64,000 nt of DNA from a virus. The stretch's first letter is position 1. Each line of letters begins with the position of its first letter. A model generated the notes under the pieces. The model worked only from the letters and a program-made list of their open reading frames with translations. It had not been told where the DNA came from and did not search any database. Location: IMG/VR virus record IMGVR_UViG_3300037153_000606; one strand, written 5' to 3'. A program made the translations under genes and the position numbers. Of this stretch, positions 5,051-19,622 are shown one piece after another.

Positions 5051-8000
5051 ATGCCCAACGAGATCGCGGCGACTGCCTTGTGGACGGATGCGGTGAGCGA
5101 CCACGACGCCGATGCGCACCGGCGCACCGTGGTGGCCGCCAAGGTCGCCCTGTCCGGCACCTGGCCGTTCTTGGCTGCGGCCAGTTCCGAGGAGGAGTTC
5201 GAGCACCGCCTCGCACTCGTCACCGCCCAGGTGGAGGAACACACCCCGGCCGAGGCGCTCGATGACGTGGTGGCCTCGTTGCGCCAGGACTTCGCCACCC
5301 TCGCCTCGGCCCGTGCCGCCGAAGCTGCCGCCGCCGCCGAGGTGACCGCCGAGGAGGGCATCGGCCTCGCCGAGCGGTACGCGCACGTGCGGCACCGTGG
5401 CGGGGACGAGGACGGGTACTTCCAGGTGGACCTGATCGGCCCGCAGACGGTGCAGACGCTGGCCCGGGCCGCCTCCCGGGACGAGGCGTTCACTGCCGCG
5501 CGGGCGCACCGGGTGCCGATCTACGAGAACGGCCGCCATGCCGAGCTGCCGCCGGTGGAGAGCGGTCAAGAGTTCTTCCACGCCGCATCCGGGCGGTGGG
5601 TCAACGCCCGCGAGTTCGCCGAGCGCGCGCAGCACCTGGGCGCGGCCGAGGACGACGACGACGAGGGGGAGGCGGGCCTGTCCCACCAGCAGCGGGTGGC
5701 CCAGGAGTACGCCCAGTTCCACCGGTCCCCGGACTGGGAGCTGAAGAACATCCACAAGGCCCTGAACATGCTGCCGTTCCTCAACGGCCCGCAGGAGAAC
5801 GCCCGGCTGGACGCGATCAAGCAGATCCGTTCCGAACGCCGCCGCCGCCAGGGTGTGTTCACCCCGGACCCCACCGACGCGATGCGCTACAACCGGTACC
5901 CGACGATCCCCTCGCCGGACTTCGGCGGTTCGCCTGCAGGGCCGGGTGACCACCCCACCGGGCCGGACGGCTTCCCGCCCGATGTGGCCCAGGGCGAACA
6001 ACGCTCCGAAGAGGCCTACGCCCGGCAGACCACGCCCGGTCCTTGGGTGGTGCCCCCGGACGCCGCGTGGCGCGACTCGATGCTGCCCAATGCAGCCACC
6101 GGCCTGCCGCAGGGCCAGTACCCGGCACCGGGCAACCCGGCGGTGAATGCATCTCGGTACATGGCCAGCGGCACCTCCGACGACTTCCACGGCGGCCGGG
6201 AGCGGGACGCCAAGTGCAGTGATTGCGGGGAGAACTACTCCTCCTCGCTGAGCAAATGCCCGAACTGCGGCAAGAAGACCTCCTCCCGGCACACCGCGCA
6301 GGAAGGGGTCGCGCCGTCCACGCACGCGCCCAACCCGAACTATTTCTGGCAGGGAGCCCAGATCGCCGGGCCGCCGACGTTCCCGCCTGACCCCGGCCCG
6401 GAACCCAAGACCAACAACAACGTCGACGACCTCTACGGCGCGGTGCCCCCGGAACAGTCCTCCGGCTCCCAGATGGGCCAGGTCGACGGTGCGGGATACT
6501 CCCGGCAGGGCACGCTGTCCCGTGAGGCGGTCCGCGAGGCCGCTTGGTGGTGGGGCATCACCCGCACCGGCGGCATGTACTACCACGGCCGCGAGTTCGA
6601 CCAGGCTGCGCGCGACAAGGCGGCCAAGTCCGGGCACGCCCTCTCCGACGGGTCGTTCCCGATCTACAACGCCAAGGACGTGCAGAACGCGAAGAACCGG
6701 ATCGGCACCTCCGACCACGACCGGGCCACGATCGTCAAGCACATCAACCACTGGGCCAAGGAGTACGGCGAGCCGCCGGTCGGCGAGGAGAAGGACGCTT
6801 CCCGGCACACCGCCGCCTCCCTGGAGGGGTTCCTGCACGGCCTGCAGTCCGGGCAGGAGGCCACCGTCGGCGAGCACTCGGTGCGTTACGACGCGCAACA
6901 GGCCCTGGACGACTACGGCCGACCGGCACGCGGGTTCACCGTCGGCACCTACTCGGTGACCGCCCCGGGCGGGGGCATCAAGTACTTCTCGCACTCGCCG
7001 TACAAGCCCGACTCCTGGGCGGGTCAGGCCAAGCGCGCCGCCGCCGAGGACGCCGCCCGGCACATCTGGGACACCCAACGGCAACGCCAGTCCTCGGTCC
7101 GGCACACCGCACCGGGCGGCGGGGAGCACGCGCCGTACCGGATCAAGAAGGTGGACGGCGGGTACGCGGTCTTCAACGACAAGGGCGAACGCAAGAACGA
7201 CGAGGCGAAGTCCTACCCCGAGGCCCGCCGCTTCCAGAAGGCGCTGTACCGCAACGTGCCCGGCGCGCGGCAGTCTGCCGAGGAGGACGAGGCGCACAAG
7301 GCCGCGTCCCGGGGCCGCCTCCCTTTCGCCCAGGCTGACCGGAGCACCGAACAACTGCGCGAGGAGGAGTACCGGGAGGGCCGTGAACACGCCGAACGCG
7401 GCCTGCCGCCGGAGACGTCCATCCCCGGCATCGACGACGTCTACGACGCTGGGTACGCCGACCGCCGTCACGACCTGGGCCGGATGGCCGCCCACCAGGC
7501 CACCTGTCCGGAGTGCGAGGGGACCGGCAAGGACTGGAACGACTACGACCCGTGCCCGCGTTGCCAGGGTTCGGGGCAGGCCTCTGCCAATACGCTGAGC
7601 CCTCCGGAGCTGGACAAGGACCACCGGCCGGTCAGCGTGGCCGGATGGCGGTGTGACGTCTGCGGGCACGAGGTCAACGGCCAGACCGACGAGGAGGGCA
7701 TCCCGACCCAGCGCGGAGACAGCGTGCGGCACACCGGATCCCGCCGGATGGCCAACACCTCCGGGCAGATCGTGGGGCATTGCGATCACTGTCACGCCCC
7801 GGTGCGCTGGCACGACGGCGACGATTCGGACGCCGGTCACCTGGAGCATCTGCACAACGCGTCCAACCGGTGCAGCGACGGGTCCCGCAACGTGGCCAAG
7901 ACCTCCGGGTTGACCCACCTCCCGCAGTTCTTCGACCCGTTCTGCGTCCCTCCGTCCCGGACCGCCTCCGGCCCGTTGGCCATGCAACCGGCGGCCCCTT

Positions 8001-8434
8001 CCGCCCCGGTCGCGCCCATTGCACCCGGACCCCCGGGCACGGCCACTCCGGCCGTGCCGAGCCCGGGTGGGCCGGGAGGTGCCGGAGGTACCGCCGTACC
8101 GGGCGGAGATTCCAACGTGCCGCAGGCATCCAGTGCAGACCTATCGCGCATTTCATCCGATTTGAAGGCATATGCCCTGCAGACGTTGACTGCACCCACC
8201 CCGGAGAACCCCACCGGGCGGGACCCCGACGAGTACCGGTCCAACACCTGGGAGGGGCTGGTCCGGCAACGGCCCATGCAGTCCGCCGAGGAGCGCAACG
8301 TGAACACCCCGACGCTGGCCCCGGAACCGATCCGGACCAGGAACGTGAACACGCCGACACCGGGCCTCGGGGACTGGGACGGGTCCACCCGCGACGAGGA
8401 CGACCTGGAAGGCGAAGAGGAGCGCGAGGACTGA
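5051..8434 (+). CDS. Large multidomain head-region protein (Zn ribbons, DnaJ-type CxxCxGxG, DGSFPI module)
   Basis: 1127 aa, RBS AGGAG, modules separated by SRHTA-like motifs. Confidence 0.75.
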   Translation: MPNEIAATALWTDAVSDHDADAHRRTVVAAKVALSGTWPFLAAASSEEEFEHRLALVTAQVEEHTPAEALDDVVASLRQDFATLASARAAEAAAAAEVTAEEGIGLAERYAHVRHRGGDEDGYFQVDLIGPQTVQTLARAASRDEAFTAARAHRVPIYENGRHAELPPVESGQEFFHAASGRWVNAREFAERAQHLGAAEDDDDEGEAGLSHQQRVAQEYAQFHRSPDWELKNIHKALNMLPFLNGPQENARLDAIKQIRSERRRRQGVFTPDPTDAMRYNRYPTIPSPDFGGSPAGPGDHPTGPDGFPPDVAQGEQRSEEAYARQTTPGPWVVPPDAAWRDSMLPNAATGLPQGQYPAPGNPAVNASRYMASGTSDDFHGGRERDAKCSDCGENYSSSLSKCPNCGKKTSSRHTAQEGVAPSTHAPNPNYFWQGAQIAGPPTFPPDPGPEPKTNNNVDDLYGAVPPEQSSGSQMGQVDGAGYSRQGTLSREAVREAAWWWGITRTGGMYYHGREFDQAARDKAAKSGHALSDGSFPIYNAKDVQNAKNRIGTSDHDRATIVKHINHWAKEYGEPPVGEEKDASRHTAASLEGFLHGLQSGQEATVGEHSVRYDAQQALDDYGRPARGFTVGTYSVTAPGGGIKYFSHSPYKPDSWAGQAKRAAAEDAARHIWDTQRQRQSSVRHTAPGGGEHAPYRIKKVDGGYAVFNDKGERKNDEAKSYPEARRFQKALYRNVPGARQSAEEDEAHKAASRGRLPFAQADRSTEQLREEEYREGREHAERGLPPETSIPGIDDVYDAGYADRRHDLGRMAAHQATCPECEGTGKDWNDYDPCPRCQGSGQASANTLSPPELDKDHRPVSVAGWRCDVCGHEVNGQTDEEGIPTQRGDSVRHTGSRRMANTSGQIVGHCDHCHAPVRWHDGDDSDAGHLEHLHNASNRCSDGSRNVAKTSGLTHLPQFFDPFCVPPSRTASGPLAMQPAAPSAPVAPIAPGPPGTATPAVPSPGGPGGAGGTAVPGGDSNVPQASSADLSRISSDLKAYALQTLTAPTPENPTGRDPDEYRSNTWEGLVRQRPMQSAEERNVNTPTLAPEPIRTRNVNTPTPGLGDWDGSTRDEDDLEGEEERED

Positions 8435-10297: not shown

Positions 10298-10471
10298 ATG
10301 TTCGCACTCGTCGCCTGCGTGTTGTTCATCATCGCCGCCGTGAAGCAGGGCCATCCGTCCACGGCCCTGTTCTGGGTCTACCTGGCCCTGGCCGCGTGGT
10401 CGTTGCACTTCTTCCTCGACCCGTGGTTGAGCCCGTACTACCCGCGCCGCCGTACCCGCACCGCGCCCTAG
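10298..10471 (+). CDS. Small membrane protein
   Basis: RBS GAGGAGG, two hydrophobic segments. Confidence 0.6.
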   Translation: MFALVACVLFIIAAVKQGHPSTALFWVYLALAAWSLHFFLDPWLSPYYPRRRTRTAP

Positions 10472-10481
10472 GATCCTCACC

Positions 10482-13400
10482 GTGCTGCTCACCGAGGCCG
10501 AGCTGGCCCGGAAGGCCGCGCACCAGAGCGACAACGAGCTGAACTACGCGCGGTTCGGGTGTTACCACACCGCGTTGGGCCGGGTGTTGAAGGGCCACCG
10601 CCGTGCCCTGCTCGAAGACGCCGCGATGGACCGCCCGCCGCCGGGCATCGAACCGGTCCGCCACGTCATCGAGGGTGCCCGCGCGTTCAACGCCCACCAC
10701 GGCCTGGGCGACCCGCACGGCGACGTCGACTACCACCGGGTGCGCACCCACCGGGGGTTGTTGACCGACCTGGCCAAGGCCTACGACCGGATGCCCGAGG
10801 ACGACCCCGAGGCGCACCGGCACTTCGCCGCCATGGGCCGCGAGGTGGACCGCCAGTACGAGCACATGACCAACCGGATGGGCATCCACGTCCAGGTCAC
10901 CGACCACGACCCGTACCGCGACGTGCACGAACTGCGCGAGGATGTGGCCAACAACCACCGCATCAAGGTCCTTGGCACGCACGCGACCGGCGGGCACCCG
11001 TTCTTCTCCAACGAACAGAACGACCGGTTCCGTGCGGTGCACGACCTGTTCGGGCACCTGGGCACTGGGCGCGACTTCGACCGGCACGGCGAGGAGGCCG
11101 CCTTCCAGGCGCACGCCCGGATGTTCACCCCGCAGGCTCGTGGTGCGCTCGCCTCCGAGACCCGCGCGCAGAACGCCCACCTGATCACCACCGGGCGTTT
11201 CGGTGCCCAGAAGATCGCGTTGATGCCGAAGCGGTTGTGGCACCCCGGCCTGGCGCACATGGCGGCTTCGGACCCGTCATGGGAGAATGATTTTCATGCG
11301 ATCCAGCGAGCTGCCTCCGGATCATCGGGACTACATGCATCCCGAGGTCGAGGCCGAGTTGGAACGGCGGATGAACGACGGGTACCGCTGGGACGATCCG
11401 AGTCGAGTGGCACATACCGAACGCGAGTTGCGCGAGCAGATGGACCGCGATCTGGCAGTGGCCGAAGAACACGAACGGCGACGCAGGACAGCCAGTTCGA
11501 CTTCCGCGTCCGTAGGCATCCGGGACTCGAATCCGACATCCTGAACCTGCCGTCTGAACTTCGGCCCAAGCTGCATAACCGCATTATCGAGATGGCGCGC
11601 GGCCATGAGCCGCCTGATACGCACGACCTTGACGAAGAACCATTGTCACGAGGCAGATGGCGTGCCGGGACGATCATGGACGAAACCGATCCCCAGCACG
11701 AGCAAGATCGTTGGAGGTGGATCCACCGCTACCACGGCGGCGACCTGCAGATCTTCGCCGCCGGGGCACACCATAAGCCGGGAGAGCCGGTCGATCCCGA
11801 TGCTCCTCCCGACATTTATCGACATGCCCGGGAGCGATGGGAAGACCCCGATCGGCGGTATTTCGCCGCCATCGAGTACGTCGCCATGGGCCACGCCGGA
11901 CCGGACTACACCGGGTTGAGTTTTACCGACACACAGCACCACCAGTACCGCGAGATCTCTTACCGGCGCTTACAGGCATACCATCCCGACCACGATACGC
12001 CGGTCGGCGAGATCTCCTTCTCGGTGTCCCCGCCGCACGCCAAGCGCCCGTTACCGTTGATCCAGATCGACAACGTCGGGGTGCCCGCCGAACACCGCCG
12101 CCGGGGCGTGGCCACCGCCTTGATGAACGAGCTGGAGCGGCAGTATCCGGACCACGTCATCGACCACGGGGAACGCACCAAGCCGGGGGCGGACTGGGCG
12201 AAGTCGAAGTACGGGCCGGGCCAGACCCGGGGTTGGTCCAAGGCCCGGGAACGGTTCACCACCACCGACCTCACCCTCAACGGTCGGCCCTACACCGCCA
12301 TGGGCCAAGCAGGACCGGACTACGAGGGCCTGACCTTCAAAGACATGTCCGGGTTCGAGTACGGCGCGCACCCGGACCTGCACCACCATCGATTGTTGTT
12401 CGCCAGACACCCGGACGAACCCGGGTACCTGGGCCACGTCCAGTACGAACAACACCCGCACGAGATCGAGATCCACAACCTGACCGTGCACCCGGAGTAC
12501 CAACGCCGGGGGGTGGCCAGTGCGTTGATGGGCGAACTGGAACGGCGCAATCCCGGCGTCGTGATCAACCACGGGATGCGGTCCTCGTCCGGCACGCAGT
12601 GGGCCAAGGACTTCTACGGCCACGAGGGCCCACCATTGAACAACGGCCAGCAAGGGTGGACGGTCGCCCCGCGCACCCGCGACCGGGAGAGGGTCGCCAA
12701 GCACGTCGCCGCCGAGGGATTACCGCCCGGTTACACCATGGCGGTGCGCGAGGACCCGAGCACCGAGCGGTGGGGCCTGCCCGCGCTGCACGTCAAGGTT
12801 CGCCACGGCGGTCGAGAAGTCGGCGCGTTGAGCGTGCACCAACGCGACATCGACGACGAGCGGGTCGGGCACCCGAACATCTACGTGGACCCCGAGCACC
12901 AACGCCAGGGTCTGGCCAGTGCCATGTACGCCGAGGTGCACCGGCGGTGGCCGAAGGTACCGGTGGTGCATTCCGAACACGCCAGCGATGCCGCCAAGGC
13001 GTTGAACCAGCGCCTGCTGGAGCACTTGCCGCAGTTGCACCGGCAGGCCGCCGCCGAGCGCTACTACCACGCGACGCCTTATGACTTGGATCGAGAGACG
13101 CATGTCCGGTCACCGATGGAGACAGGTCGGGAGCCGCATTGGGGTGGAATGGGCGACCAAGAGGACGCTCAGGTCTTCGGCACCCACTCCATCGAGAACG
13201 CGCACGAGTGGGGCGGCGAGATTGCCGACTCGTCCCACTACCGCATTTACGAGGTGCAGTCCGAAGGAAATGTGGAAGACCACTCTCACACCTGGGCCGC
13301 ACCCCGGGCTCGGATCCTGCGTCGGGTGCACCCTCCGGTTGCCAAGCAGGCCGCCGCCAGGCACACCATGTCATTAGCCGAACTGCGCACGTTGCCTACC

Positions 13401-15224
13401 GAGGACTACCGGGTGCGGGTGGACAAGGTGCGGGCCAAGATGGAGCACGAGTGGCGGCACGGCACGGACACCCAACGCACCTCCTGGCGCGTACACGGCG
13501 GCCCGTCGGGGTACCTGGATCAGCTCGGTGCCGACATCACCGCGCACGGCATCACCGAACCGATCGTCATCGGGCACCGGCCCAATGGGCGCACCACGAT
13601 CTACGACGGCACGCACCGGGCCCTGGTCGCGCACGAACAGGGCATCGACCCGGTGCCGGTCACCCATCTGGATCTGGTGCCGGGTCAGCACATTGCGTGG
13701 GACAATGGGAACCATGGCCGAGGACAAGCCCCGCCGGTACCCGTTGGACGAGAACGGGCGACCGGATCTGGCCGACGAGTGGGATCTGCCCGAGGACTGG
13801 CCCAAACCGGAGGACAATCCGTACGCGGTACGACCGGGCGAGGATCATCGCGAAGTGTTCAACCGGATGCGTACCGACGGTCGTCGCGAGAGAGAAGCTC
13901 GGGAAGCCGCCGAGAGGGAGCGCGCGGTCAAGAGCTGATTGTCCATCTCCCAGATCCGCATCCTCATCTGAAGAACGATCTCGATCGCCTCAGTGATGAC
14001 GATCATGAGCATTACCTAGATCGTATTGACGTCCTCAGGACTCATGATCTCGGTGGCAATACTCATTTACTGACTCACGGTCGACTTGCTGGGTGGTCTG
14101 GTACGTACCTGCACGATGACGCCCAGACACACGTAATCGTGCATCGCCGTCGTCGATACACAAGAGTGCCTCGATTACAGGTGTTGGCGGTTGGCCCCCA
14201 TGACGAGGCATACGCGAATGCCGAGCGGCGATTGTCCAATCCCTCACGACGGTTCGCCGCCGCCGACTGGGACGAGTTCCGGCGCATCCAGGACACTCAA
14301 CGCCGCCGGTACGAGCGGCCCGGCGTCGGTGGCGACCAGGAAGACCGGGACCGGTACTTCGGCACCGGTGAGATGCGCGGGGTCGGCGAGGAACGCCTGA
14401 TCACGCCCAAGGACTGGATCACGCACTCGCGCAACCAGCGCTTCGAGGACACCGACCCGCACTTCCAGGAGCACTGGCGCGGGTACGAGCTTGGACACGC
14501 GCACGGTGCGAGCGGCAGGGTGGACGCCGAAGAGTTGGAACGCGAACACGCCCGCAGCCCGCACCAGGACCATTTCCGGGCCGGGTACGGGGAAGGACTG
14601 GAGGCCGCGATGGACCGGGTGGCGGTGTTGGTTGGACCGGGTACGCCCACGGCGGTGACCATCCCGAAGACCGCGCACGTGTCCGGCAACACCGTGGACG
14701 CCCTGCACTGCCCGTTCTGCGGTAGCGGTTCGGTCACGGCACGTTCGGACGGGTCGATCGAATGCAGCTTCTGCACCGCCGCCTACACGGTGCAGGTGCA
14801 GCCGCAGTACTCGGCGTTCCCGCAGACCGTCAACGACATGCCCTACCCGTGGCCGGGCCGCGACGACCTGGGTGCGGGCGGCCTACCGGGTGGCGTAGTA
14901 GACGAACAGGACGGCGAGCAGGACGAAGCCGACGGCGAGCAGGATGGCGACGGGTCGGTCCCGCCCTGGTTGGGTGGCGGTGAAGGAGATGACCAGGACG
15001 CCGAAGACGAGGCAGACGAGGGCGAGGATGAGGACGAGCCCGAGGATGACGAGGCGTCCGTCCATGGCAGCAAGGCTCCTCCGTTCGGCAAGAAGAAGTC
15101 CTACCTGAACACACGTGGGCAGGAATTGTCCGAAGAGGACTACTTGCGGCACTTGGCGATCCTGGTCAGCCCGGACCCGGCGGCCATGGCGGCGAAGGTC
15201 AGGAAGCAGCGGGTGGGTGCGTGA
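10482..15224 (+). CDS. Polyvalent head-region polyprotein: 2 RelE/ParE-like, 3 GNAT, ADP-ribosyltransferase-like, ParB-like and Zn-ribbon domains
   Basis: GNAT motif A three times (VPAEHRRRGVA, VHPEYQRRGVA, VDPEHQRQGLA); YYHAT...VFGT...IYEV; GITEPIVI...YDGTHR; CPFCGSG...CSFC. Confidence 0.75.
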   Translation: MLLTEAELARKAAHQSDNELNYARFGCYHTALGRVLKGHRRALLEDAAMDRPPPGIEPVRHVIEGARAFNAHHGLGDPHGDVDYHRVRTHRGLLTDLAKAYDRMPEDDPEAHRHFAAMGREVDRQYEHMTNRMGIHVQVTDHDPYRDVHELREDVANNHRIKVLGTHATGGHPFFSNEQNDRFRAVHDLFGHLGTGRDFDRHGEEAAFQAHARMFTPQARGALASETRAQNAHLITTGRFGAQKIALMPKRLWHPGLAHMAASDPSWENDFHAIQRAASGSSGLHASRGRGRVGTADERRVPLGRSESSGTYRTRVARADGPRSGSGRRTRTATQDSQFDFRVRRHPGLESDILNLPSELRPKLHNRIIEMARGHEPPDTHDLDEEPLSRGRWRAGTIMDETDPQHEQDRWRWIHRYHGGDLQIFAAGAHHKPGEPVDPDAPPDIYRHARERWEDPDRRYFAAIEYVAMGHAGPDYTGLSFTDTQHHQYREISYRRLQAYHPDHDTPVGEISFSVSPPHAKRPLPLIQIDNVGVPAEHRRRGVATALMNELERQYPDHVIDHGERTKPGADWAKSKYGPGQTRGWSKARERFTTTDLTLNGRPYTAMGQAGPDYEGLTFKDMSGFEYGAHPDLHHHRLLFARHPDEPGYLGHVQYEQHPHEIEIHNLTVHPEYQRRGVASALMGELERRNPGVVINHGMRSSSGTQWAKDFYGHEGPPLNNGQQGWTVAPRTRDRERVAKHVAAEGLPPGYTMAVREDPSTERWGLPALHVKVRHGGREVGALSVHQRDIDDERVGHPNIYVDPEHQRQGLASAMYAEVHRRWPKVPVVHSEHASDAAKALNQRLLEHLPQLHRQAAAERYYHATPYDLDRETHVRSPMETGREPHWGGMGDQEDAQVFGTHSIENAHEWGGEIADSSHYRIYEVQSEGNVEDHSHTWAAPRARILRRVHPPVAKQAAARHTMSLAELRTLPTEDYRVRVDKVRAKMEHEWRHGTDTQRTSWRVHGGPSGYLDQLGADITAHGITEPIVIGHRPNGRTTIYDGTHRALVAHEQGIDPVPVTHLDLVPGQHIAWDNGNHGRGQAPPVPVGRERATGSGRRVGSARGLAQTGGQSVRGTTGRGSSRSVQPDAYRRSSRERSSGSRREGARGQELIVHLPDPHPHLKNDLDRLSDDDHEHYLDRIDVLRTHDLGGNTHLLTHGRLAGWSGTYLHDDAQTHVIVHRRRRYTRVPRLQVLAVGPHDEAYANAERRLSNPSRRFAAADWDEFRRIQDTQRRRYERPGVGGDQEDRDRYFGTGEMRGVGEERLITPKDWITHSRNQRFEDTDPHFQEHWRGYELGHAHGASGRVDAEELEREHARSPHQDHFRAGYGEGLEAAMDRVAVLVGPGTPTAVTIPKTAHVSGNTVDALHCPFCGSGSVTARSDGSIECSFCTAAYTVQVQPQYSAFPQTVNDMPYPWPGRDDLGAGGLPGGVVDEQDGEQDEADGEQDGDGSVPPWLGGGEGDDQDAEDEADEGEDEDEPEDDEASVHGSKAPPFGKKKSYLNTRGQELSEEDYLRHLAILVSPDPAAMAAKVRKQRVGA
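11296..11544 (+). CDS. Overprinted small charged ORF, candidate antitoxin 1 (leaderless)
   Basis: Alternate frame inside the polyprotein; GAGAAT-N7-ATG; precedes and overlaps the start of a RelE-like domain. Confidence 0.5.
   Translation: MRSSELPPDHRDYMHPEVEAELERRMNDGYRWDDPSRVAHTERELREQMDRDLAVAEEHERRRRTASSTSASVGIRDSNPTS
13714..13938 (+). CDS. Overprinted small acidic ORF, candidate antitoxin 2 (leaderless)
   Basis: Alternate frame; GACAAT-N7-ATG; ends where the second RelE-like domain begins. Confidence 0.5.
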   Translation: MAEDKPRRYPLDENGRPDLADEWDLPEDWPKPEDNPYAVRPGEDHREVFNRMRTDGRREREAREAAERERAVKS

Positions 15225-15535
15225 CCTCCTCGGCCACCGTCACCGCGTTGCTCGCCGACTACGACCTCGGCGAGTTCGCCCGCGCCTCCGAGCATCCGTG
15301 CCAGGCGTCCCGGTTCCACTCACCGCGCCCGTTGTTGACCCGCCATTACGACTTCGGCACCCATTACGTCTCGTACTGGTTGTGCGGCACCTGCGCGGGC
15401 AACATCCAGATGTTCCTGTTGGTACACGAGAACGAGGGCGAGCTGCCCTGGTCCACGCTGCGCGAGTTCGGCAACGAAGTACGCCGTATCGGCAACACCA
15501 TTATCCTGCGCCGCCAGCAGGCCAGCCGTGGCTAG
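15221..15535 (+). CDS. Hypothetical protein
   Basis: GTGA overlap; CxxC motif; overlaps the portal start. Confidence 0.65.
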   Translation: MTSSATVTALLADYDLGEFARASEHPCQASRFHSPRPLLTRHYDFGTHYVSYWLCGTCAGNIQMFLLVHENEGELPWSTLREFGNEVRRIGNTIILRRQQASRG

Positions 15536-18323
15536 TTTCGTCGTCACCGACAACCGGGGCCGCCGGGTGCCGTTGCCCAACGGCACGGCAGGCCCGCCAA
15601 ACGGGTTCTCGCGGATCTCCACCCGGCGGGTCACCGAGGCCGACCAGCAGGGTTTCTCCTCGCGCGGGTTGCCCTTCGGCACGCCGGACGTCAACGCCGC
15701 CGTGACGCACGCCCGGGCGCAGAAGCTGACCCACGCCTCACGGATGCGCCGCACCGGGGCGTACGGCGGCGGCACCGCGTCGATGCAGTTGGCCACCTCC
15801 CGGCCGCGCGACCCGATGTGGTACTGGAAGCAGAACAACATCCCCTTCGACTTCACCGAGCCGGAGGAGCTGGCCAAGATCCGGGAGTTCTGCACCACGC
15901 CGGACACCCCGGTCACCATGGCCGACAACTCCAGCAAGCCGATCGGCACCGTGGCGGTCGGCGAATCGGTGTACGGGTGGACCTACCGGTTGCACGTCAA
16001 CGGCGGTTTGGAACGCAACTGGGTCGCCTCGAAGGTGATCGCGGTCGGGGTGAAGCAGGCCCCGGTGGTCACCGTGACGCTGGCCAGCGGGGCCACGGTC
16101 ACCTGTACCGCCGACCACCGGTGGGCGAACCCGAACTTCACCAAGTTGCAGCGCACCGAGCGGATCGGGCCGTGGGTGCAGGCCGACTCGGCCACCGAGT
16201 ACCAGAGCGCGCAGGTCGGCACCGCGTTGTTGGCCGCGTCCAACTGCCGGGTCGAGCACAACGCGCGTGGGTACGGCTACCCGGCCGCCGACACGTTCGA
16301 GGACAAGGTGATCTCGGTCGAGCCGGTGCTCGACGAGGACGGCGTGTTGGTCTACACCGACGTGGTCTCGCTGCAGACGCTGACCGGCAACTACATCGCG
16401 GGCGGGTACTGCAGCAAGAACTGCCGCCTGCTCTACGTGACGCACCCGATCGTGAGTGCCTGCATCGACGTCTACTCCAAGCTGCCTATGCAGGGGATGG
16501 CATTCACTTGTAAGGACCCGCAGCTGGTCGACTTCTACACCGACCTGTTCTTCGACCAACTGAATTACGAGGACTTCCTGCTCGACCTGGGCACCGAGTA
16601 CTGGCTCTCCGGGGAGAGCTGGGGCCTGGGCGGTTGGAACGACACGCTGGGCGTGTGGGAGTCCGACGCGCTGATCAACCCCGACGACGTCGAGGTGGAG
16701 AACTCGCTGTTCCAGCCCGAGCCGCGCTACCTGATGCGGTTGCCCGAGTCGCTGCGCAAGATCCTCACCACCCGCACCCCGCACTGGCAGTACACCCAGC
16801 TGGTCACCAAGTGGCCGGAGCTGGCCAACTACGCGTCCGAGGACGCGCTGATGCCGGTCTCGAACTACATCCTCAAGCAGCTGCGGTTCAAGGCGGATCG
16901 GTTCTCCAACCGGGGCATCCCGATTTTGATGCGCGGGTTCCGCACCCTGATCCAGGAGGAGATGCTCAACTCCGCGCTGGATTCCATCGCGGACCGGCTC
17001 TACACCCCGCTGATCCTGACCAAGCTGGGCGCGACCGCGCAGGACCTGGGCACTAACGTGCCGTGGATCCCTACCCAGGACGAGATGGAGGACTTCAACG
17101 CGGTGCTGGACGCCGCGCTGGCCGCCGACTTCCGCGCCTTGACCTACCACTGGGCCGTCGACATGCAGCCGGTGTTCGGCCGGGAGAACGTGCCGGACCT
17201 GTCCAACGACTTCGACCGGATCGTGGAACGCATCCTGATGGTCTTCGGGCTGAGCCAGACCATGCTCACCGGAGCCGAGGCGGGCGAGACGTACGCCGCC
17301 GACGCACTGAACCGCGACGTGGTCACCCAGCTGCTCTCGCACTACCAGAAGATGATCTCGCGCTACGTGCACGACCGGGCCGCGATCGTCGCCGAGGCGC
17401 AGGAGCACTACGACTACGAGGTGCGCCAGGGCCGCCGGTACCTGGTCACCGAGGAGATCTACGAGGTGGACGAGGAGACCGGCGAGGAGCGCATCGTCGA
17501 GCAGCCCAAGCTGTTGGTGCCCGACCTCGAATTCAAGACGCTCAACATCTCCGACGAGGAGGACGAGCGGCAGTTCGTCGAGACGCTGGCCGCAGCGGGC
17601 GTGCCGGTGCCCTACCGAGCCCGGCTGACCACCACCGGCATCGACTTCGACGAGGCGATCGAGGAGCGCTCCCAGGAGGACGTGGCGCTCGCGGTGGCCG
17701 AGCAGGAGACCCGCAAGAAGACATTCCAGGCGTTGCAGCGGGCCGGTCTGCCCATCGCCGCCGACCTGGCCCAGGACTTCTCCCCGAAGGCGATCCAGCC
17801 CGGCAACGAGCCCGCGCTGGGCATGGACGGGCAGGACGCGCTGCTCAACCCGTTGGGTCTCGCCCCCACCGACCTGCCCGCGCTCGCGCCGACCCAGGAC
17901 GACCTGGACCAGGACACCGGCATCGAGGACACCAATGCGCCGCCGTCCGACCAGGGCGACGGGTACGGGCCCGGCGGTGAGGGTGACTACCCGGGCCGCC
18001 CGGAGGAGTCCGACGAGGAGCGTGACGGCATGCCGACCTCCAACCAGCGCGCGGCCAGCCTGGCATCCGGTTCTCCGGACACCAAACCGCCGATCACCAA
18101 GATCTCCGGCTACCAGATCGGGCAGCGCTTCGGGATCCGCCAGGCGGTTGCCGAGCACTACGTCGCGCCGGACAACTCCGAGGAGGAGAACGCCCGCGAC
18201 TTCCGGCCCACCGGCCGGTTCGGCGCGCCCCGGGTGCTCGGCATGCGCCAGTACCTGAACCTGGGCGGCGTGCCGACCCGGGTGGCCAAGCGGCCCCGTG
18301 GCGAGGAGGACGCAGATGGCTAA
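15528..18323 (+). CDS. Portal protein containing a mini-intein
   Basis: HPIVSACIDVYSKLP and RGIPILMRGFRTL...DRLYTPLILTKLG resemble Bxz1-type portals; located in the head module. Confidence 0.75.
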   Translation: MASFVVTDNRGRRVPLPNGTAGPPNGFSRISTRRVTEADQQGFSSRGLPFGTPDVNAAVTHARAQKLTHASRMRRTGAYGGGTASMQLATSRPRDPMWYWKQNNIPFDFTEPEELAKIREFCTTPDTPVTMADNSSKPIGTVAVGESVYGWTYRLHVNGGLERNWVASKVIAVGVKQAPVVTVTLASGATVTCTADHRWANPNFTKLQRTERIGPWVQADSATEYQSAQVGTALLAASNCRVEHNARGYGYPAADTFEDKVISVEPVLDEDGVLVYTDVVSLQTLTGNYIAGGYCSKNCRLLYVTHPIVSACIDVYSKLPMQGMAFTCKDPQLVDFYTDLFFDQLNYEDFLLDLGTEYWLSGESWGLGGWNDTLGVWESDALINPDDVEVENSLFQPEPRYLMRLPESLRKILTTRTPHWQYTQLVTKWPELANYASEDALMPVSNYILKQLRFKADRFSNRGIPILMRGFRTLIQEEMLNSALDSIADRLYTPLILTKLGATAQDLGTNVPWIPTQDEMEDFNAVLDAALAADFRALTYHWAVDMQPVFGRENVPDLSNDFDRIVERILMVFGLSQTMLTGAEAGETYAADALNRDVVTQLLSHYQKMISRYVHDRAAIVAEAQEHYDYEVRQGRRYLVTEEIYEVDEETGEERIVEQPKLLVPDLEFKTLNISDEEDERQFVETLAAAGVPVPYRARLTTTGIDFDEAIEERSQEDVALAVAEQETRKKTFQALQRAGLPIAADLAQDFSPKAIQPGNEPALGMDGQDALLNPLGLAPTDLPALAPTQDDLDQDTGIEDTNAPPSDQGDGYGPGGEGDYPGRPEESDEERDGMPTSNQRAASLASGSPDTKPPITKISGYQIGQRFGIRQAVAEHYVAPDNSEEENARDFRPTGRFGAPRVLGMRQYLNLGGVPTRVAKRPRGEEDADG
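15891..16421 (+). mobile_element. Mini-intein (177 aa, Hint domain, no homing endonuclease)
   Basis: C1 CTTPDTPVTMAD, block B TCTADHRW, end GNYIAGGYCSKN followed by +1 Cys. Confidence 0.85.
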
Positions 18324-19122: not shown

Positions 19123-19344
19123 GTGAGCACCGCCGCGCCGGAATGGCTGCCCGAGCGTGCGCTGTACTGGGAGCAGCTGCCGTTCCTGGTGCACGACGGC
19201 GACACGGTCCAACCCGGCCAGCTGGAGTGGCAGCGCCCGGACGGGCAGGTGTTCACCTTCCGCGCGATGCGCTGGCATCTGGAGCGTCACGACTGGGTCG
19301 ACTACCTGGTCATCGACGCGTGGGAGAAGATCGCGCGGCCATGA
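19123..19344 (+). CDS. Small hypothetical protein
   Basis: GTGA-coupled start; ATGA overlap with the next gene. Confidence 0.5.
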   Translation: MSTAAPEWLPERALYWEQLPFLVHDGDTVQPGQLEWQRPDGQVFTFRAMRWHLERHDWVDYLVIDAWEKIARP

Positions 19345-19622
19345 GGATCACCGAGGGCGAACTGCGCGAGCGGTTCGGGTACTCGCCCAACCCGGACCGC
19401 GCACACGCCGCCGCCCAGGCCGACGTGCACCGCCGCCTGTTGCAGGTGGCCGTAGTGATGTCCAACGTGCTCCCGCAGGGCCGGGAGGCCACTTTGGTCA
19501 TCACCAAGCTGGAGGAGGCACTGTTCTGGGCGGACGCCGCGATCGCGCGCACCGAGCACCTGCCGGTACGGCGCGGACGCCCGCCCCGCGAGATCATCGA
19601 TCAGCCGTTGCCGGAGAACTGA
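19341..19622 (+). CDS. Acb2/Tad1-like cyclic-nucleotide sponge protein
   Basis: RFGY...LPQGREATLVITKLEEALFWADAAIAR matches the Acb2/Tad1 helical hairpin pattern. Confidence 0.65.
   Translation: MRITEGELRERFGYSPNPDRAHAAAQADVHRRLLQVAVVMSNVLPQGREATLVITKLEEALFWADAAIARTEHLPVRRGRPPREIIDQPLPEN

Follow-up and report, generated by a model that had tools for sequence, protein, structure and literature searches.

Type II toxin–antitoxin (TA) operons such as relBE, parDE and yefM-yoeB have a layout that recurs twice inside a single long phage gene, found at positions 10482-15224 of a stretch of viral DNA (IMG/VR record IMGVR_UViG_3300037153_000606; 64 kb, hereafter the window). All coordinates are those of the whole stretch, and the features lie on its plus strand. 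As in these operons, a small acidic gene comes first, and its end touches or overlaps a RelE/ParE-like domain of about 100 residues. The genes of each pair are adjacent and co-oriented, the small partner lies beside the domain, and their ends abut or overlap. The locus differs from type II operons in that its toxin-like half lacks a separate start and forms part of a 1580-residue protein. Its antitoxin-like half, rather than being joined in frame, lies in DNA that is read in two frames. Moreover, there is no detectable DNA-binding domain and no family hidden Markov model (HMM) match to either half. Gerdes (2025; PMC11980606) lists in-frame single-gene TA fusions, which show that TA genes can merge, and sets aside many multidomain RelE-like proteins for which no antitoxin was found. 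Nested partners, if true, could account for multidomain RelE-like proteins that seemingly lack an antitoxin.

The surrounding gene resembles the polyvalent proteins of Iyer et al. (2017; PMC5512222), about 26% of which carry PBECR RNase domains with a RelE fold. It combines GNAT, ParB-like and BECR-like effectors in one polypeptide encoded among head genes, and its modules are shuffled between relatives, in which MuF and ART-PolyVal domains also occur. The difference is that each BECR-like domain here is paired with its own nested partner gene, whereas PMC5512222 contains none of the terms 'immunity protein', 'antitoxins' or 'neutraliz-' and so seems not to describe any cognate inhibitor genes. 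How the producing cell and the phage's late translation survive toxin-like domains in virion polyvalent proteins is a question to which a nested partner would be an answer. The MuF polymorphic toxins found in temperate phages (Jamet et al. 2017; PMC5576092) are similar in that a toxin domain sits on a head-associated protein beside the portal gene, with a small cognate open reading frame (ORF) presumed to protect the producer. In that paper the toxin is C-terminal and a separate immunity ORF lies immediately downstream in 89% of cases. In the present locus the toxin-like domains are internal, and each partner sits upstream of its domain, in another frame of the same ORF.

We found no natural out-of-frame nested antitoxin in the literature. 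Complete small genes in a shifted frame of a larger gene include Rz1 in Rz of phage lambda and comS in srfA of Bacillus subtilis, both of which are thought to have arisen within the host gene. In the locus described here, by contrast, the codon pattern makes the small gene the older reading, with the linker overlaid after insertion. Free-standing homing endonucleases and inteins in phage structural genes offer another parallel, since a related polyprotein gene (L159, below) carries an HNH gene at the same module junction and others carry LAGLIDADG inteins, which fits selfish elements whose insertion does not break the host protein. Unlike these elements, the cassettes described here have no recognisable endonuclease, flanking repeats or intron RNA.

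The gene and its two cassettes comprise the following features.

10482-15224, plus strand: gene for a polyvalent multi-effector virion-region protein, 1580 codons in a single frame.
11265-11882, plus strand: cassette 1, 618 nt, residues 262-467, an insertion relative to the closest homologue (alignment with P0006).
11280-11288, plus strand: TGGGAGAAT, 7 nt 5' of ATG 11296, an extended -10-like element or Shine–Dalgarno-like GGAG (motif scan).
11289-11492, plus strand: main-frame read-through of gene 1, an Arg/Gly/Ser-rich linker with an isoelectric point (pI) of 11.9 (log-odds, composition).
11296-11544, plus strand: nested +1-frame gene 1, 82 residues, acidic (pI 5.3) and placed like an antitoxin (best coding frame of six).
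11493-11882, plus strand: RelE/ParE-like domain 1, residues 338-467, ending in a ..RRYFAA junction motif (homology to domain 2; hhalign).
13698-13706, plus strand: TGGGACAAT, 7 nt 5' of ATG 13714 (motif scan).
13710-13931, plus strand: main-frame read-through of gene 2, an Arg/Gly/Ser-rich linker, pI 12.0 (log-odds, composition).
13714-13938, plus strand: nested +1-frame gene 2, 74 residues, acidic (pI 4.9) (best coding frame of six).
13932-14270, plus strand: RelE/ParE-like domain 2, residues 1151 to about 1263, ending in a ..SRRFAAA junction motif (protein-atlas neighbours; element order of the model).

Codon usage was scored with a log-odds model trained on the large genes of the window. 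Along the 4.7-kb ORF, the +1 frame scores best only at about 11262-11500 and about 13662-13940. In a six-frame test of these two islands it is the sole positive frame (+0.20 and +0.25), the other five scoring from -0.04 to -0.52, and the main frame falls to between -0.2 and -0.3 over island 1. Over the gene as a whole, codon positions 1 to 3 have GC contents of about 0.7/0.45/0.9, and the GC-poor position shifts to main-frame position 3 at 11232-11457 and 13707-13857. Minus-strand genes were considered as a source of this GC pattern and rejected, as the frames that mimic it score -0.04 and -0.15. The main-frame product of the islands consists of 50-57% Arg, Gly and Ser and has a pI of about 12, compared with 25% Arg, Gly and Ser in the whole protein. 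The original prediction, made from the letters and their ORFs, was that the long frame twice crosses a Gly/Arg/Ser-rich stretch that looks off-frame, and that another frame encodes a charged protein at 11296-11544 and at 13714-13938. Both points are borne out, and both ORFs start with ATG and encode acidic products. That these shifted-frame ORFs look like real genes is supported by their codon statistics.

In the same scan, no internal island appeared in the other confidently called large genes of the window, the remaining matches being misjudged ORF starts or wrongly chosen ORFs. Nested ORFs per se are common: in 25.7 kb of genes, 11 ORFs in the +1 frame start with ATG and reach 74 codons or more. 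The two islands stand out because of their codon pattern rather than as nested ORFs as such. Low-complexity linkers of similar length in three relatives (L161, L162 and L163), used as a control, score positive in the main frame and negative in the alternative frames.

These data also give the relative age of the two readings. Since the small frame has a normal coding signature and the main frame does not, the small-gene frame is the older one, and the polyprotein linker was overlaid later on an acquired gene. The original prediction had the order the other way round, with the small ORFs overprinted on the polyprotein. Reading through an inserted gene needs no special luck, as the scarcity of T at third positions leaves the -1 frame open in 43-46% of 75-83-codon segments of the window's real genes. 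Searches of the islands, both in the window and in L159, found no Rfam family and no group I or II intron.

The two small genes encode products without sequence similarity to each other. Gene 1 has an alternative ATG at 11287, and the JGI gene caller chose the resulting 85-codon version on a 1277-bp fragment in which the long ORF is cut. A nested partner gene of this kind would escape standard annotation, because gene callers keep the long ORF. Cassette 2 has its small ORF touching the first strand of the domain, and in cassette 1 the overlap is about 50 nt. Both stop codons overlap a main-frame CTG as CTGA (11541-11544 and 13935-13938). The CTG of cassette 2 marks the position of the domain's first residue, as though a start-stop overlap (ATGA or GTGA) had been stripped of its start codon; that of cassette 1 falls inside the first helix and is probably a coincidence.

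Searches for homologues of the small proteins found none. Small ORF 1 had no match by tblastn against phages, and when small ORF 1 and domain 2 were looked up in word-index searches of proteins, only the query itself or nothing came back. A scan of JGI metagenomes with small ORF 1 yielded a single 30-residue low-complexity match, which was discarded. With all four parts (both small proteins and both domains), phmmer found nothing significant among ORFs around 34 actinobacterial ParE/RelE genes.

Each nested gene begins 7 nt after TGGGA(G/C)AAT, as the original prediction had noted. The full pattern TGGGA(G/C)AAT-N7-ATG, defined after the fact from these two sites, occurs exactly twice in the 64 kb (11280-11298 and 13698-13716). 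When the sites are aligned on the ATG, 10 of 16 upstream bases agree. The motif can be read as the extended -10 element (TGn + nAnnnT) of a leaderless transcript. The accompanying claim that no ribosome-binding site is present needs correction: GGAG lies 10 nt 5' of ATG 11296, a spacing that also occurs in some ordinary genes of the phage, and ATG 13714 is preceded by only a weak GGA/GGGAA. The polyprotein itself starts at TAGGAT-N7-GTG (10466-10484), with the hexamer-to-start geometry of the nested genes and a canonical TANNNT hexamer. AGGA within TAGGAT could equally serve as its ribosome-binding site.

Directly 3' of each nested ORF, the main frame encodes a domain of 100-130 residues. The two are alike, as the original prediction had proposed. 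In a tblastn search of the six-frame window they match over about 120 residues (E = 0.003). They are 29% identical and share HPxLxxD..L, THDL, GR..W, LQ(I/V)xAxGxH and Y..A..R motifs. Their Smith-Waterman local score of 68 exceeds that of shuffled sequences (32.3 ± 5.8, z about 6), none of 1000 shuffles reaching 68. Judged by these comparisons, domains 1 and 2 are homologous. Neither has an ATG, GTG or TTG near its start in the main frame, and they are therefore made only within the polyprotein.

The likeness to RelE/ParE toxins held up in part: a weak signal recurs in several kinds of comparison, and there is no established match. Domain 2 lies nearest to RelE/ParE clusters in a protein atlas based on a language model (0.94-0.95), and its 10 best named neighbours all belong to one clan. 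The nearest named clusters of domain 1 are YhaV (0.89) and ParE (0.88). We also built a toxin profile from 34 actinobacterial PF05016 toxins, excluding the locus of one unpublished genome. Against this profile, hhalign scores domain 1 at 20.3, domain 2 at 17.1 and a profile of both sequences at 22.3, compared with about 10 ± 2 for shuffles (9.8 ± 1.8 for domain 1; maxima 15.5 and 17.8), so that domain 1 and the two-sequence profile exceed all shuffles. The signal sits in the RelE-like subgroup, not the ParE-like one, and under relaxed settings the alignment is co-linear over 77 columns.

The original prediction had named structure modelling and profile comparison as a check on the domains. The low-confidence model of domain 2 shows the order helix-helix-four strands-helix, which is the right one for RelE, whose topology is given in PMC11980606. 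With this model, HigB is the top match in Foldseek (E = 1.2, non-significant) and the first of 48,161 chains in a second comparison (Z 4.7 with 87 residues aligned, likewise non-significant). From these weak lines, drawn from sequence and models, the domains quite probably have the RelE/ParE fold. Given that no library match exists and that the models do not suffice to assign a fold, we leave the domains outside the superfamily.

Comparison with relatives delimits the first cassette as an insertion. The conserved N-terminal module of the closest homologue (P0006, to residue 252) is followed at once by 'AMGQRGPDY', the counterpart of residue 468 here, and residues 262-467 are therefore extra in this protein. 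At the second site, P0004 and P0006 have a GNAT module followed directly by the module that starts at residue 1264 here. The linkers and downstream domains align in none of 28 relatives. The GC content at third codon positions (GC3) is 0.38-0.70 in cassette 1 and 0.44-0.56 in domain 2 (0.4-0.7 for the cassettes overall), compared with about 0.9 in the flanks, and the main-frame codon log-odds of the cassettes are about zero or negative. Low GC3 and atypical codons across each whole cassette fit the recent acquisition of small gene and domain as a unit.

How the cassettes entered left no recognised trace, as we found no target-site duplications, terminal inverted repeats or flanking repeats around them. 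Scans of genome contigs and IMG/VR with the N- and C-terminal modules returned one distant locus without cassettes (L001) or nothing. Exact-word matching against IMG/VR turned up no relatives of the cassette parts, and domain 2 had no tblastn match among plasmids.

A nested gene also occurs at the same junction in a relative. The 2403-residue polyprotein P0004 of L159 (JGI contig Ga0455950_0000220) has one frame-switch island right after the same N-terminal module. There, a 166-codon ORF in the +2 frame (L159 positions 1179-1679) encodes an HNH endonuclease of the zf-His_Me_endon type (PF13392, 30.6 bits, cut-off 24.8), across which the polyprotein frame is uninterrupted and reads as a linker rich in Ser, Thr and Pro. 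A search of this island for intron RNA found none. Five further loci were checked for nested genes (L001 and L160-L163), and L001, L160 and L161 have no frame-switch island. Inside the related polyproteins P0006, P0008 and P0009 lie LAGLIDADG/intein domains (PF14528, PF14890). The module junctions of this gene family thus take up foreign genes repeatedly while the big protein stays unbroken. The HNH gene further suggests that the junctions tolerate, and perhaps attract, selfish DNA. The nested HNH gene and the inteins make the cassettes described here more credible and leave room for a purely selfish reading.

We propose the following sequence of events. Two-gene cassettes with the order of type II TA operons would have been acquired horizontally at module junctions of a polyvalent gene. 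The second gene, for the RelE/ParE-like domain, would have become fused in frame, its product being made only within the 1580-residue protein. The first would have stayed separate in the +1 frame, and the polyprotein, reading its DNA one base off register, would have gained a disordered linker rich in Arg, Gly and Ser. Both small acidic proteins (82 and 74 residues) would most likely be made from internal starts, either on a leaderless transcript or by internal ribosome binding. They would probably bind and silence the adjacent domain in the virion-producing cell. The domain would then probably travel with the particle protein into the next host and probably be cut free at x-A-A junction motifs. 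That the locus holds two captured TA-like cassettes, whose small partners silence the fused RelE/ParE-like domains and whose domains leave with the particle protein, is a proposal to which we give about even confidence. What the sequence itself establishes is the anatomy, namely one continuous ORF, two islands of switched frame, the borders of the cassettes, the kinship of the two domains and their foreign composition, whereas fold, toxicity, neutralisation, small-gene expression and packaging are inferred.

Several results weigh against this proposal. At the start sites, the hexamers GAGAAT and GACAAT begin with G rather than the usual T of TANNNT, and a scan for consensus sigma-70-type promoters scored no promoter at either nested start. 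The small ORFs have no Pfam, NCBIfam, PHROG or PDB sequence match at E values up to 10, and family scans detected no DNA-binding antitoxin fold (ribbon-helix-helix, helix-turn-helix, Phd/YefM or AbrB) in their products. The same four libraries contain no match to either domain at E values up to 10. PDB sequence searches with each domain and with the two-sequence profile gave nothing useful, and a full HMMER search with domain 1 against 1.84 billion representative proteins found only the parent protein. The hhalign probabilities are 4-19%, and hmmsearch with the ParE/RelE profile is non-significant (E = 1-2). Single-sequence AlphaFold2 models of the domains are poor (predicted local distance difference test, pLDDT, 48 and 43), which makes the fold matches non-significant, and the model of domain 1 has no RelE-type match above noise (YoeB ranks 38th, Z 2.3). 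Both domains are near-neutral (pI 5.8 and 6.5), unlike typical basic ribosome-binding RelE toxins. Finally, no relative carries the cassettes and all four known copies are identical.

The cassettes could instead be two-gene modules of another kind, for example a small chaperone or regulator with an effector or structural domain, the likeness to RelE/ParE reflecting a common alpha/beta arrangement. The missing HMM-level matches to toxin or antitoxin families would be expected in this case, as would fold matches with Z below 5. The near-neutral, His-rich composition of the domains points the same way, as does the C-terminal H-R...Y motif of the RelE-like group, which is only partly kept. However, several independent weak lines converge on the RelE/ParE superfamily and on no other, and gene order and sizes match type II operons. 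BECR-fold RNase domains are, moreover, already present in about a quarter of polyvalent proteins (PMC5512222). We therefore consider a module unrelated to TA systems rather unlikely, though it deserves weight.

The cassettes might also be relics of recently captured operons, in which the small genes are no longer expressed and the +1 ORFs have not yet decayed. They do look recent, with foreign GC3 and absence from all relatives, and the four copies hold no variation that could reveal selection. The start signals are weak, and roughly one in three +1-frame windows as long as these is open in any case. Against decay, two unrelated small genes have both kept their ATG, a full frame and a 9-nt upstream motif at equal spacing, and an active toxin domain would require an antidote in the producing cell. 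On balance, relics seem unlikely to us.

That ordinary low-complexity linkers coincide with accidental +1 ORFs of high-GC DNA is very improbable. Spurious ORFs do abound here (66 of at least 60 residues in 10 kb, besides the nested ORFs counted above), but +1 is the sole frame with positive log-odds, only two islands emerge in the large genes tested, and the true low-complexity linkers of relatives keep main-frame codon usage. Recoding, in which ribosomes shift to +1 near the ATGs and fuse the upstream module to the small ORF in shorter products, could use the main-frame TTT-C just 5' of the ATG in cassette 1, but is the least credible explanation given that cassette 2 lacks a similar slippery context, searches revealed no family of stimulatory RNA, and both small frames start with ATG behind a common signal.

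If the TA-like cassettes are real, they illustrate a route of gene capture in which one gene of a foreign two-gene operon joins a host protein, the other stays independent, and the same DNA serves as both gene and linker. The locus contributes evidence on the age of the frames, the limits of the insertions and the parallel with the HNH gene. Being short and separable, both small proteins and both domains lend themselves to assays of toxicity and rescue in laboratory strains. A further-reaching version of the proposal is speculative, and we think it improbable. In this version, RelE/ParE-type toxin domains would be loaded into the capsid within a polyvalent protein that is ejected, and antidotes hidden in the linkers would protect late translation in the producer. 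In the next host the toxin would act first and the antidote would follow from -10-only leaderless promoters on DNA entry, forming a timer of host shut-off. The junctions would be landing pads for whole foreign genes (TA pairs, homing endonucleases) that are reused as linkers.

The remaining modules of the polyprotein and its neighbour are as follows.

10518-11264, plus strand: conserved N-terminal module, residues 13-261, ending in ..GLAHMA (phrog_3170, E = 5e-70).
11883-13040, plus strand: three GNAT acetyltransferase modules in tandem (three stretches matching Pfam PF00583/PF13508, E about 1e-20).
13515-13676, plus strand: weak ParB-N-like segment, residues 1012-1065 (PF02195, E = 0.13; phrog_8071 and phrog_723, E about 3e-4).
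14271-15224, plus strand: C-terminal module, conserved, containing a zinc ribbon and an acidic tract (from residue 1264 on, 43-48% identity with P0004 and P0006).
15528-18323, plus strand: portal protein gene (phrog_2833, E = 1e-137).

The window has a G+C content of 62-71%, which suggests an actinobacterial host, and contains phage head genes. Positions 10482-15224 form one continuous ORF. The identical 1580-residue product was called on three Logan contigs (14-72 kb), and a fourth sample (JGI) contains the identical 1277-bp fragment. As the sequence is the same in four independent samples, the long frame is not an assembly error. A megablast search of the gene against 50,697 phage records gave no match.

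The description of the gene as a polyprotein of the virion region has stood. A 104-codon gene begins just 3' of the ORF and the portal gene is next, which places the polyprotein gene among virion and packaging genes, directly 5' of the portal gene. The order of polyprotein, ~105-residue gene and ~925-residue gene is kept in L159. Several unrelated effector domains share the polypeptide, namely three GNAT modules, a ParB-like segment, two BECR-like domains, a zinc ribbon (weak, Lar-type) and the N-terminal module. The match of the N-terminal module to phrog_3170 spans residues 13-278, and the module is 58-73% identical to P0005, P0006 and P0007. The 28 relatives, which come from public metagenomes, share some of these modules in a different order and add MuF, ART-PolyVal, Arr and intein domains. 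Because modules are mixed in this way and reshuffled in the relatives, we class the gene, on its sequence, as a polyvalent protein as Iyer et al. (2017; PMC5512222) use the term.

GNAT modules 1 and 2 open with (Y)xAMG(H/Q)AGPDY(T/E)GL(S/T)F, encoded by a 55-nt direct repeat (D1) that is 75% identical. The relatives carry one to several GNAT copies in differing order.

The polyprotein's module borders have a motif in common, [R/K/H/Y/F]-x-A-[A/M], which lies at residues 259, 460/466, 604, 741, 854, 955 and 1257 (window positions 11256, 11859/11877, 12291, 12702, 13041, 13344 and 14250). It also forms the 3' end of both cassettes, and relatives have H-x-A-A at the same first border. The motif could be a protease cleavage code.

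Elsewhere in the window, a 1127-codon gene at 5051-8434 has a DnaJ-type CXXCXGXG zinc finger, and a 1383-codon gene at 30526-34677 has a NUDIX domain (PF00293, E = 2e-13). Neither contains an internal frame-switch island. The gene at 19341-19622 encodes 93 residues with a Pfam Acb2_Tad1_hairpin domain (a precomputed match on a Logan contig), which suggests that its product is an anti-CBASS/Thoeris sponge.

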